Below are positions 22,121-22,897 of a DNA stretch of 64,000 bases, piece by piece. Position 1 is the stretch's first letter. The number at the start of each line of letters is the position of its first letter. Source of the stretch: a virus (taxonomy: Duplodnaviria > Heunggongvirae > Uroviricota > Caudoviricetes); the IMG/VR virus record IMGVR_UViG_2541047712_000002; one strand, written 5' to 3'. The translations under genes were made by a program, and so were the position numbers. The notes under the pieces are model-generated. The model saw only the letters and a program-made list of their open reading frames with translations, ran no database searches and was not told the origin of the DNA.

Positions 22121-22897
22121 AAATACAATGATAAGTATTTACTTACTTATCTTTTGTGTATAAGATGACTTTGTTTTCGTTGAGACGCGACTGTTTGAAC
22201 TTAAATACAAGTGCAAACGAAGAAGTCTATCTGGCAGTAGCCTAATAAGCCAAACACCAGCGAGGTCAGTTTCCAGCCTCGTTACCGAAATGGGACACAC
22301 TGAGCGAGTGTGATTGCAGAACGCAGGAGGGAACATTCATGTTCCCTCCGATGAAGTAACAGAATGGGCGGTTGGTATATTTTCAACTCCATATGACTCC
22401 CGGATTCTTAGCCACTGACCGCCCATCCTGTTACGTCATTTGTTCAATTATGTCGTTTATACTGGGTTAAAAAGCGGCGACGTAGCCCGGCTGGTATGGT
22501 TAGCCAGCACACAACGTTGAGGCCATTACATTTTTATCAATTCTAAGGTTCTATTCACAGAGATACCGGCGAGCGTTGATATGTAACATGTTGGGCAAAC
22601 ATTCAATCGGAGTAGTGGCCTCAACGTTGTGAAGACAGGATTGTTGTGTAGGTTTAACCACTGTTGCCATTGGTGCCTGTTTTCACAACAAATGATTCCA
22701 TACATCACATTGTATAAATTACAAAGTAGGTGCTGTCCTCAGAAACATCATCTACTTAAAGATTTTGCCTTCTACTATTGAGCGAAGTCGAAAGCGTCTG
22801 GCACTAACGAAAAGTGCAAGTAGCGGTGCGTTTCCTGGCAGAAACTAAACCGTCGCGATTGGCACTGTTGAGTAATAAATACTGGCAGTGCTGAATT

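Follow-up and report, generated by a model that had tools for sequence, protein, structure and literature searches.

A tmRNA-like phage RNA without a tRNA-like domain in the tRNA-operon leader of an SSU5-like phage-plasmid

The IMG/VR record IMGVR_UViG_2541047712_000002, analysed here as one stretch of 64,000 nucleotides (nt) that we call the window, is an SSU5-like Escherichia coli phage-plasmid. A cluster of tRNA genes in this window is preceded by an interval flanked upstream by a small open reading frame (ORF) at 21830-22120 and downstream by tRNA-Asn at 22898, and within this interval positions 22173-22897 form the leader of the tRNA operon, which is conserved, covarying and free of ORFs. 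The genes that follow the leader are, in order, tRNA-Asn, tRNA-Tyr, an interrupted tRNA-Thr-like gene and tRNA-Ser. A sequence-only reading of the interval had taken it for a structured RNA that codes for no protein and is tied to the tRNA cluster, and this is borne out by the folding energy of a 741-nt stretch (-253 kcal/mol, as against -200 +/- 6.6 in shuffles; z = -8.1) and by compensatory double changes at 15 of 119 consensus pairs among 13 diverged relatives. The same reading saw no convincing ORFs, in agreement with a longest frame of 50-65 amino acids and with the 1-2-nt and larger indels by which relatives differ. What it overlooked is a module in the 5' part, the first ~150 nt of the leader (22173-22323), which resembles transfer-messenger RNA (tmRNA). 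Judged by sequence comparison, the module is very probably part of a tmRNA-derived RNA that lacks the feature by which tmRNA is defined, a tRNA-like domain.

The tmRNA-like module

A core of ~110 nt (about 22161-22315) matches unrelated phages at ~77% identity, and this allowed the module to be compared across lineages. The comparison covers 169 loci, namely the window, 167 related loci (given L-numbers such as L003 and L010) and E. coli ssrA as a control. Covariation in the core was assessed in 44 distinct sequences that are not of the SSU5 type, and covariation over the whole leader in the RNAalifold consensus of 13 diverged SSU5-type intergenic regions. The coordinates of all features are collected in Table 1.

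The most distinctive feature of the module is a short frame whose product, ANEEVYLAVA, is close to the E. coli SsrA tag ANDENYALAA. Its first codon, GCA, is invariant across lineages, as are the columns AAA.A.AA.U of the A-rich lead-in ahead of it. In E. coli tmRNA U85-A86 are important for the choice of the resume codon; most lineages have the corresponding U(-5)A(-4), and the window has C at -5. Among 143 members the frame occurs in 28 nucleotide versions, every one of them ten codons long. Substitutions fall at the third positions of codons 2, 3, 4, 6, 8, 9 and 10, codon 5 is free at any position, and the resulting pattern A-N-[DES]-[EDNA]-x-[YF]-L-A-[VA]-A includes swaps between Y and F and among D, E and N, with a stop that may be TAA, TAG or TGA. 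A second scan, keyed on the downstream pseudoknot and making no use of the tag sequence, found further members with the same coding constraint.

These third-position changes, the variable spelling of the stop and the constant length argue that the frame is decoded. No start codon was found for it: in lambdoid versions the frame is closed eight codons upstream by a TAG, with no ATG, GTG or TTG between, and close relatives of the SSU5 type carry 1-2-nt indels immediately upstream of the frame. A frame that is decoded with no possible initiation is the hallmark of a trans-translation template. It is also the sole conserved frame of the region, so that what is found there is a start-less, tag-like frame and not a short conserved protein gene in the ordinary sense. 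We consider it very probable that the module is tmRNA-derived and decoded.

The structures downstream of the frame point the same way. The hairpin that holds the last tag codons and the stops in its loop is paired in 100% of the 44 sequences, although it varies only between G-C and G-U. Compensatory pairs number three in hairpin S1, two in pseudoknot A (GC to AU or the reverse) and two in hairpin S3, seven in total; partners slid out of register gave 0-2 double changes, and 0 of 500 shuffles reached the observed values. Cells at the core pairs are 100% paired, as against 31-47% with slid partners. Pseudoknot A takes the general form of CCRR in the S1 loop with a downstream YYGG, and within the SSU5 type the variation between UGGGA and UGGAA preserves its pairing. 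Lineages other than the SSU5 type have in addition a pseudoknot B between the S3 loop and the segment following GAUUAAUAA, which exists in five co-varying loop/partner versions that differ in length (GCCCG/YGGGC, GCCCUGA/UCAGGGC, GCCCAC/GUGGGC, GGCGGGAG/CUCCCGCC and GACGGGAGG/UCUCCCGUC). On this comparative evidence the module is the message-like half of a tmRNA, with lead-in, tag, helix 5 and hairpins with pseudoknots. Candidates for a pseudoknot 1 in cis within the 5' region (CAGUUU/AAACUG and CUUUGCGG/CCACAAAG) showed no compensatory changes, one of them being broken in the L019 type, so that these models have no support from covariation.

The other half of a tmRNA was not found. ARAGORN and Rfam (E<=5) reported only three tRNAs in the whole 64 kb, and no tRNA-like domain with a G3:U70 acceptor, T arm and 3' CCA. 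Neither program detected a tRNA or tRNA-like element within 22140-22897; the stretch TAGCCCGGCTGGTATGGTTAGCC (22484-22506), which had been likened to a D arm, is present and forms the small hairpin GCUGG/CCAGC. Over 21800-23900 Rfam gave no match, at gathering threshold or E<=10, to group I or II introns, RNase P RNA, 6S RNA, GOLLD, ROOL or any other family, which leaves the earlier suggestion of a degenerate intron with no group I or II signal behind it. No match to the tmRNA model RF00023 was seen, and four related loci likewise matched no known family. The one signal was a weak match of the tag region to beta_tmRNA, a model of two-piece tmRNA, at 17.3 bits where the gathering score is 84 (15.6 bits in L009).

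Over the 169 loci ARAGORN called a tmRNA in only two, both Felix-like. In Citrobacter phage Mijalis (L004) it reads the same frame as the tag ANDNVFLAVA of a "permuted tmRNA". We rejected this as a tRNA-like domain, since the 5' half of the call lies inside tRNA-Lys, the 3' half is an orphan tRNA half with A3:U70, the acceptor is mismatched in L087 and just two loci are called. Calls of this type explain the passing statements, in the genome announcements concerned, that Felix O1 and Moogle "encode ssrA" (PMC4319497, PMC4392139). A literature search on tmRNA together with HK620, SSU5, pHCM2 or Felixounavirus found only one-line ARAGORN mentions in Felix O1-like genome announcements. The Mijalis call draws on a permuted or split tRNA-like arrangement at L004:1978-2050, in which an orphan tRNA 3' half ending ...CCUUCACCCUUCGCCA stands 4 nt ahead of the matching 5' half GAAGGGUUAGUGUAAUGGCAGCAC; in a related phage the arrangement contains a mismatch that is not compensated, and no homologue of the orphan half was found in the window, HK620 or Carvaje.

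Complementarity of the 5' arm to host tmRNA

Ahead of the lead-in lies an arm that is complementary to host tmRNA over the resume-codon region and tag codons 1-5. For the window arm RNAduplex predicts -26.3 kcal/mol with E. coli tmRNA, in two runs of 10 base pairs (bp) separated by a small internal loop. Two boxes of the arm, GUUUUCG and GCGAC, are kept in nearly all family members: GUUUUCG(U) complements tag codons 3-5 of E. coli tmRNA (ACGAAAAC, nt 97-104), and GCGAC(U) complements AGUCGC at nt 86-91, which runs from -4 to +2 of the resume codon. Across the 363-nt E. coli tmRNA, nt 84-110 is where each of the 16 arm variants pairs best. The full arms of HK620 and other lambdoid elements form three helices over nt 67-108, ~29 bp altogether, at -32 to -40 kcal/mol, and this pairing takes in UUUGCGG with CCGCAAA, the 3' strand of pseudoknot 1. 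The energies of four of five HK620/lambdoid-type arms (L003, L010, L009 and L078) were reached by none of 248 random 363-nt windows and by at most 1 of 100 shuffles; the corresponding share of windows was 1.2% for L005 and 5% for L063.

The arm and the sense copy that follows it make up an imperfect inverted duplication of a tmRNA-like segment. In all three blocks the arm complements the host sequence perfectly (GUUUUCGU/ACGAAAAC, GCGAC/GUCGC and UUUGCGG/CCGCAAA) and its own sense copy with mismatches, the phage copy reading ACGA[AU]GA where the host has ACGAAAAC, AAUGC for GUCGC, and CCACAAA for CCGCAAA. The duplex of the window arm with its own tag region is about half as stable (-13.6 kcal/mol) as that with the host.

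A position of the arm at the extreme 5' end of the transcript is suggested by strong sigma-70 promoters at the equivalent place in two other lineages. Mijalis has TTGACA-17-TATAGT (11 of 12 matches) and L010 has TTGACA-17-TAGATT (10 of 12), both ending 6-8 nt ahead of the invariant GUUUUCG, and in the 13 SSU5-type relatives TA.GAT is invariant.

How the module may act

The identity of the RNA is well supported, and from it we infer a mechanism of the following kind. Transcription of the phage RNA would start at its own promoter and take in the tRNAs as well. Annealing of the 5' arm to nt ~81-105 of host tmRNA (in lambdoid elements to nt 67-108, where the arm would invade and open pseudoknot 1) would mask the host resume determinants U85-A86 and the first tag codons. 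On leaving this duplex beside the host lead-in, the phage strand would present its lead-in and resume codon at a distance of 19-36 nt. On stalled ribosomes entered by the Ala-charged tRNA-like domain of the host with SmpB, reading of the host tag would then be blocked, or translation would resume on the phage frame and append (A)ANEEVYLAVA in place of (A)ANDENYALAA. Such a tag would keep the N-terminal determinants of the SspB type and alter the C-terminus of the ClpX type. The conservation profile of the phage tag (A-N-D/E at positions 2-4, residue 6 free, Y/F at position 7) mirrors the SspB-binding determinants of the SsrA tag, and its invariant LAVA end is unlike LAA, the ClpX determinant, so that with the phage tag the fate of tagged proteins would probably be altered rather than abolished.

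A number of results weigh against this interpretation. The energy of the SSU5-type arm is unexceptional, being reached by 1-4% of random windows, and when the 764-nt region was slid along tmRNA with RNAduplex its GC-rich parts gave similar energies, with long loops; as many loop-rich duplexes of similar energy exist, energy alone does not discriminate for this arm. As the arm and sense copy are an imperfect inverted duplication, the complementarity could in part reflect a purely intramolecular hairpin, or simple descent. The Salmonella tag ANDETYALAA predicts one mismatch to GUUUUCG, and Salmonella phage SSU5 keeps the box all the same, so that no co-adaptation of arm and target is visible in its sequence. 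(Felix O1-like loci also keep the box, the host named for these being Citrobacter.) The boxes are weakened in two divergent members, to GUUUUCA in L151 and with GCUUC for GCGAC in L155. The promoter of the window itself is weak, with 8 of 12 matches, and fell below the level reported by the promoter scan, and no pseudoknot B is apparent in the SSU5 type, to which the window belongs. Finally, neither a tRNA-like domain nor a G3:U70 acceptor nor a gene for SmpB was found, so decoding of the tag would call for a hypothetical further step.

Taking both sides together, we regard pairing of the phage RNA with host tmRNA in vivo as evenly balanced. That the phage RNA docks on host tmRNA and thereby blocks or replaces the tag template, the interpretation that we prefer, has a little less than an even chance. 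Replacement of the template rather than plain inhibition is a doubtful, if possible, extension of it. Equally tentative, and on balance unlikely, is the specific form in which phage RNA and host tmRNA make up a chimeric two-piece tmRNA, so that rescued ribosomes translate ...YLAVA in place of ...YALAA.

An arm that acts as a plain antisense RNA, binding host tmRNA and inhibiting it or triggering its cleavage (for example by RNase III) with a frame that is no template, would account equally well for the complementarity. AgvB and AsxR from prophages of enterohaemorrhagic E. coli are anti-sRNAs (directed at small RNAs) or RNA sponges, short Hfq-dependent decoys without a conserved reading frame. 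The phage RNA resembles sponges of this type in being the RNA of a mobile element with a conserved 5' segment complementary to a core host non-coding RNA, and differs from them in that its target would be tmRNA and that it brings a substitute template. These prophage anti-sRNAs are precedents in kind, as is the tRNA-domain-only tmRNA-like RNA of mycobacteriophage DS6A, which is reported to inhibit host tmRNA (cited in PMC11915505). The DS6A RNA, phage-borne like the RNA described here, and some plastid and mitochondrial forms are likewise half-tmRNAs; in these coding-sequence-less RNAs it is the tag frame that has been lost and the tRNA-like domain that is retained (PMC11915505), which makes the present RNA the opposite half. 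Plain antisense action leaves unexplained the codon-periodic conservation, the stop in three spellings, the A at -4 and the covarying downstream pseudoknots, and a constitutive inhibition of rescue would be costly for temperate elements in 6% of E. coli genomes. We consider it unlikely.

It is less probable still that the phage encodes a complete tmRNA whose tRNA-like domain went unrecognised, as a separate acceptor piece, a T-arm stem module or an interrupted tRNA-like gene. The frame does look decoded and two-piece tmRNAs do exist; T-arm three-way modules stand right after the core in L005, L009 and L034, and the tRNA-Thr-like gene at 23069-23201 has an encoded ACCA. Against these stand the searches of the 64-kb window, which showed no tRNA-like domain beyond the three tRNAs, and the complete lack of candidates with G3:U70; the T-arm modules have no CCA and are absent from the SSU5 type, and the Mijalis call borrows tRNA-Lys and an A3:U70 half in two loci only. 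Moreover, a transcript that starts at the arm, as the promoters suggest, has no room for a 5' acceptor strand.

The same low probability attaches to an ordinary tRNA-operon leader or spacer with processing stems, in which the tmRNA-like part is a decaying, functionless relic of a captured host ssrA. Its position upstream of tRNAs, the near-perfect stems of ~20 bp typical of RNase III-type substrates, the conservation of stems with variable inserts, and the gain and loss of entire modules would all suit such a leader. A relic, however, would not have retained, in the Felix O1-like, lambdoid, siphoviral and phage-plasmid lineages, a stop and a ten-codon frame that drifts only synonymously, nor covarying pseudoknots, nor an arm that stays nearer to the host sequence than the sense copy of the RNA does, and lambdoid prophages have no tRNAs to process. 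A conventional small protein is very improbable: both a 29-amino-acid ORF on the plus strand (22156-22245, ending ANEEVYLAVA) and a 65-amino-acid ORF on the minus strand (22139-22336) exist in the window, the latter recurring in most SSU5-type relatives, but both were rejected on indels, in-frame stops and absent starts, as the former starts inside the promoter, is frame-shifted by 1-2-nt indels in close relatives and in lambdoid versions has an in-frame stop and no start, and the latter is interrupted by stops in the HK620, Felix-like and lambdoid versions of the core, the near-invariance of the DNA being all that keeps it open in the SSU5 type.

The remaining leader, its relatives and what the RNA would mean

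Downstream of the module nearly every inverted repeat of the leader is a conserved helix in the alignment of 13 SSU5-type regions (Table 1). The perfect 15-bp repeat described before is part of the longer stem I3; its 5' half CACAACGTTGAGGCC does lie at 22510-22524, and the partner GGCCTCAACGTTGTG is at 22617-22631, not 22614-22628. The hairpin seen near 22325-22350 is present with arms of 11 bp each (22326-22336 / 22339-22349) where 9 had been counted, and the reported GGGCGGT/ACCGCCC pair sits inside a 22-nt inverted repeat of 91% complementarity, 22351-22372 / 22418-22439.

Table 1. Features of the interval and the start of the tRNA cluster, with positions in the window
Feature	Position	Strand	Sequence	Evidence or remark
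Putative sigma-70 promoter	22138..22166	+	TTTACT-17 nt-TAAGAT	start inferred at ~22172-22174
5' antisense arm	22172..22197	+	UGUUUUCGUUG-AGAC-GCGACUGUUUG	complementary to E. coli tmRNA nt 81-105
A-rich lead-in	22198..22212	+	AACUUAAAUACAAGU	A at -4 and -3, U at -1
Tag frame	22213..22248	+	GCA AAC GAA GAA GTC TAT CTG GCA GTA GCC TAA TAA	ANEEVYLAVA and two stops
Hairpin, last tag codons and stops in loop	22232..22252	+	UGGC/GCCA	RNAalifold; like tmRNA helix 5
Hairpin S1	22261-22265 / 22277-22281	+	CGAGG/CCUCG	
Pseudoknot A	22271-22275 / 22291-22295	+	UUCCA (S1 loop)/UGGGA	
Hairpin S3	22296..22312	+	CACACU/AGUGUG	
Possible long-range helix	22317-22323 / 22795-22800	+	CAGA.CG/CGUCUG	RNAalifold; 6 pairs
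Hairpin, variable-insert stem module	22326..22349	+		11-bp arms; 6 of 8 pairs compensatory
Long hairpin I1	22351..22439	+		22-nt arms; 26 pairs, mostly invariant or G-C/G-U, 1 compensatory
Small conserved hairpin	22448-22485	+	UUAUGUCGUU/GGCGACGUAG	RNAalifold; 10 pairs
Small conserved hairpin	22490-22508	+	GCUGG/CCAGC	RNAalifold; 6 pairs
Long-stem module I3	22510-22529 / 22612-22631	+	CACAACGUUGAGGCCAUUAC/GUAGUGGCCUCAACGUUGUG	20-nt arms, 95% complementary
Hairpin I5	22626..22689	+	GUUGUGAAGACAGG/CCUGUUUUCACAAC	inverted repeat
Conserved unpaired motif	22690..22706	+	AAAUGAUUCCAUACAUC	no predicted partner
Three 3' hairpins	22801-22817, 22820-22856, 22861-22892	+		directly before tRNA-Asn
tRNA-Asn(GUU)	22898..22972	+		first gene of downstream cluster

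The stems of this array differ in how they vary. The loop or insert of the hairpin at 22326-22349 ranges from 2 to ~20 nt among relatives, and the whole module is deleted in L113; the two small hairpins at 22448-22485 and 22490-22508 share one compensatory pair. I3 has 19 pairs, 3 of them with compensatory changes (GC to AU or the reverse), around an insert of 82 nt that is poorly conserved, and the entire module is missing from L090. In I5 the L007 type reads GUUGUGGCCACGG / CGUGGCCACAAC, a compensatory rewriting. The 5' arm of I5 and the 3' arm of I3 share GUUGUG, and so the two pairings exclude each other at 22626-22631. Two compensatory pairs occur in the 3' hairpin at 22801-22817 and one in that at 22820-22856. 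In the unpaired motif AUGAUUCC.UACA.C is invariant or nearly so in the 13 SSU5-type relatives, AUGAUUCC itself fully. The weakly supported helix 22317-22323 / 22795-22800, in which one pair shows a G-C to A-U double change in three related sequences, may close the central hairpin array in the consensus model. RNAalifold also paired ACACCA (22254-22259) with the 5' end of tRNA-Asn, which we judged an artefact of invariant columns, since other lineages have no tRNA-Asn. One further observation concerns GGGCGGUUGG (22366-22375, in the 5' arm of I1), which is identical to 10 bases of E. coli tmRNA pseudoknot 1 at approximately nt 54-63 and invariant in 13 of 13 SSU5-type relatives; it may be chance, a 10-mer match at these lengths being not rare.

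With regard to function, I3 offers a duplex of 20 bp, as an RNase III-type stem would, and stems covary where inserts vary, so that the earlier suggestion of the long stems as precursor-processing stems is plausible. The remaining ~570 nt of the leader most likely serve as punctuation, for processing or stabilisation, that sets the tag RNA apart from the tRNAs. No terminator-like site was found on the plus strand of 22140-22897; transcription therefore probably runs on from the leader into the tRNAs, and RNase P would free the leader at 22898, a cut that would define the 3' end of the leader RNA.

The combination of an I3-type stem (CACAAC-...-GCAYUG / CARUGC-...-GUUGUG) and a following GUUGUG...CACAAC stem is found again at 23199-23423 and recurs across lambdoid late leaders with differing inserts. 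At 23199-23423 a long stem (23199-23222 / 23262-23285) is followed by a three-way module closed by CCGUUGUGGUGG / CCACCACAACGG; P7 and D6 match the stretch at 95% identity in their tRNA regions, its stem types recur with different inserts in HK620 and other lambdoid late leaders, and successive stem arms share GUUGUG, making the pairings mutually exclusive as at 22626-22631. Directly after tRNA-Ser, at 23515-23592, stands a hairpin with 20-nt arms (CACAGCGUUGAGCGGUUUGG / CCAGACCGCUCAACGCUGUG) whose stem resembles that of I3; having no U-tract, it is not an intrinsic terminator.

The tRNA-Thr-like gene at 23069-23201 has an intact acceptor stem (GCCGGUU/AACCGGC), a D arm, a T arm and an encoded ACCA, with the anticodon arm replaced by a structured insert of ~70 nt, and is called by neither ARAGORN nor Rfam. 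At the matching place Cyrano has a normal tRNA-Thr(UGU), and phage Jgk1 contains an 88% match. In L005 (2640-2720), L009 and L034, which are lambdoid and Klebsiella relatives, the stem module after the core encloses a hairpin and a canonical T arm (AUGGGUUCGAGUCCCAU, GGGUUCGAAUCCC), forming a tRNA-like three-way junction without CCA or G3:U70. Elsewhere in the window, at 40993-41411 on the minus strand, a full-length match to the cspA thermoregulator 5' untranslated region (187.6 bits) indicates a cold-shock-protein gene with its RNA thermometer aboard the phage-plasmid. Among the proteins encoded near the leader a Pfam scan matched only a DNA ligase.

Plasmid NZ_CP116198 carries the leader region of the window unchanged (100% identity), phages CMS-2020a and Cyrano carry it at 97-99% identity, and an equivalent gap of ~750 nt is present in SSU5, in Enterobacter, Citrobacter and Klebsiella plasmids, in Salmonella plasmids and in the ~100 kb plasmids of Yersinia pestis. 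The module extends well beyond this group. A pattern scan found the tag frame in at least 120 IMG/VR viral contigs, the module occurs at 360 places in 350 of 5426 complete E. coli genomes (~6%), and 773 plasmid records contain a match, including Y. pestis and Salmonella plasmids; a scan of genome contigs gave three matches, all Enterobacteriaceae. The core always sits on the strand of nearby tRNA genes or in a late leader. In HK620 it lies between qut (the Q-utilisation site) and tQ (the late terminator), in Felix O1-like myophages such as Mijalis within the tRNA cluster, and in Klebsiella siphophages such as Carvaje upstream of tRNA-Ser. RefSeq has no annotation at any of the 360 E. coli places, and no mention of the tag peptides was found in the literature searched.

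tmRNA has been catalogued exhaustively (~97,000 sequences), and to our knowledge the known forms all keep the tRNA-like domain, known half-molecules being only those without a tag frame. A 2025 tmRNA database recognises standard, permuted, intron-containing and coding-sequence-less forms and none without a tRNA domain (PMC11915505). The phage RNA shares with tmRNA (RF00023, and the two-piece permuted forms RF01849-RF01851) a start-less GCA, the A at -4 within the A-rich stretch ahead of it, a tag that is ten codons long and gamma-proteobacterial in kind (AN[DE][EDN]x[YF]...), a hairpin loop that holds the stops, and H-type pseudoknots further downstream. Two-piece tmRNA, moreover, owes its function to two RNAs joined by base pairing, to which phage RNA plus host tmRNA may be likened. 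It differs in having no tRNA-like domain, acceptor stem, T arm, CCA or convincing pseudoknot 1, in a tag that ends LAVA where tmRNA tags end almost universally in ...AA, in a 5' arm antisense to host tmRNA, in its size and setting (~150 nt inside a tRNA-operon leader of ~725 nt or a phage late leader) and in its score of 17 bits against 84. As a long structured RNA beside phage tRNAs and on their strand, the leader is also reminiscent of GOLLD (RF01998), ROOL (RF03087) and the stable RNAs of the T4 tRNA cluster; unlike GOLLD and ROOL, with which it has no sequence or structure match, it occurs in different hosts and is a modular hairpin array with a tmRNA-like head.

The RNA thus presents the reverse half of a tmRNA, one that has the tag frame and pseudoknots, lacks the tRNA-like domain and bears an arm antisense to host tmRNA, and its carriers are classic and much-studied elements: Felix O1-like phages, HK620-type lambdoid prophages and phage-plasmids of the SSU5/pHCM2/pMT1 type. 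Even on the most conservative reading it is a widespread, unannotated and covariation-supported RNA family of phage tRNA and late-leader regions, and it accounts for the sporadic tmRNA calls that ARAGORN makes in Felix O1-like genomes. The sequence evidence suggests interference with ribosome rescue by many enterobacterial phages and phage-plasmids. The proposed mechanism predicts chimeric reads with SsrA and peptides ending in LAVA, and if the template is swapped the fate of all rescued polypeptides would be re-routed during lysogeny or infection. If true, this would be a new viral takeover of a host quality-control pathway, and a natural case of one RNA reprogramming the template of another.

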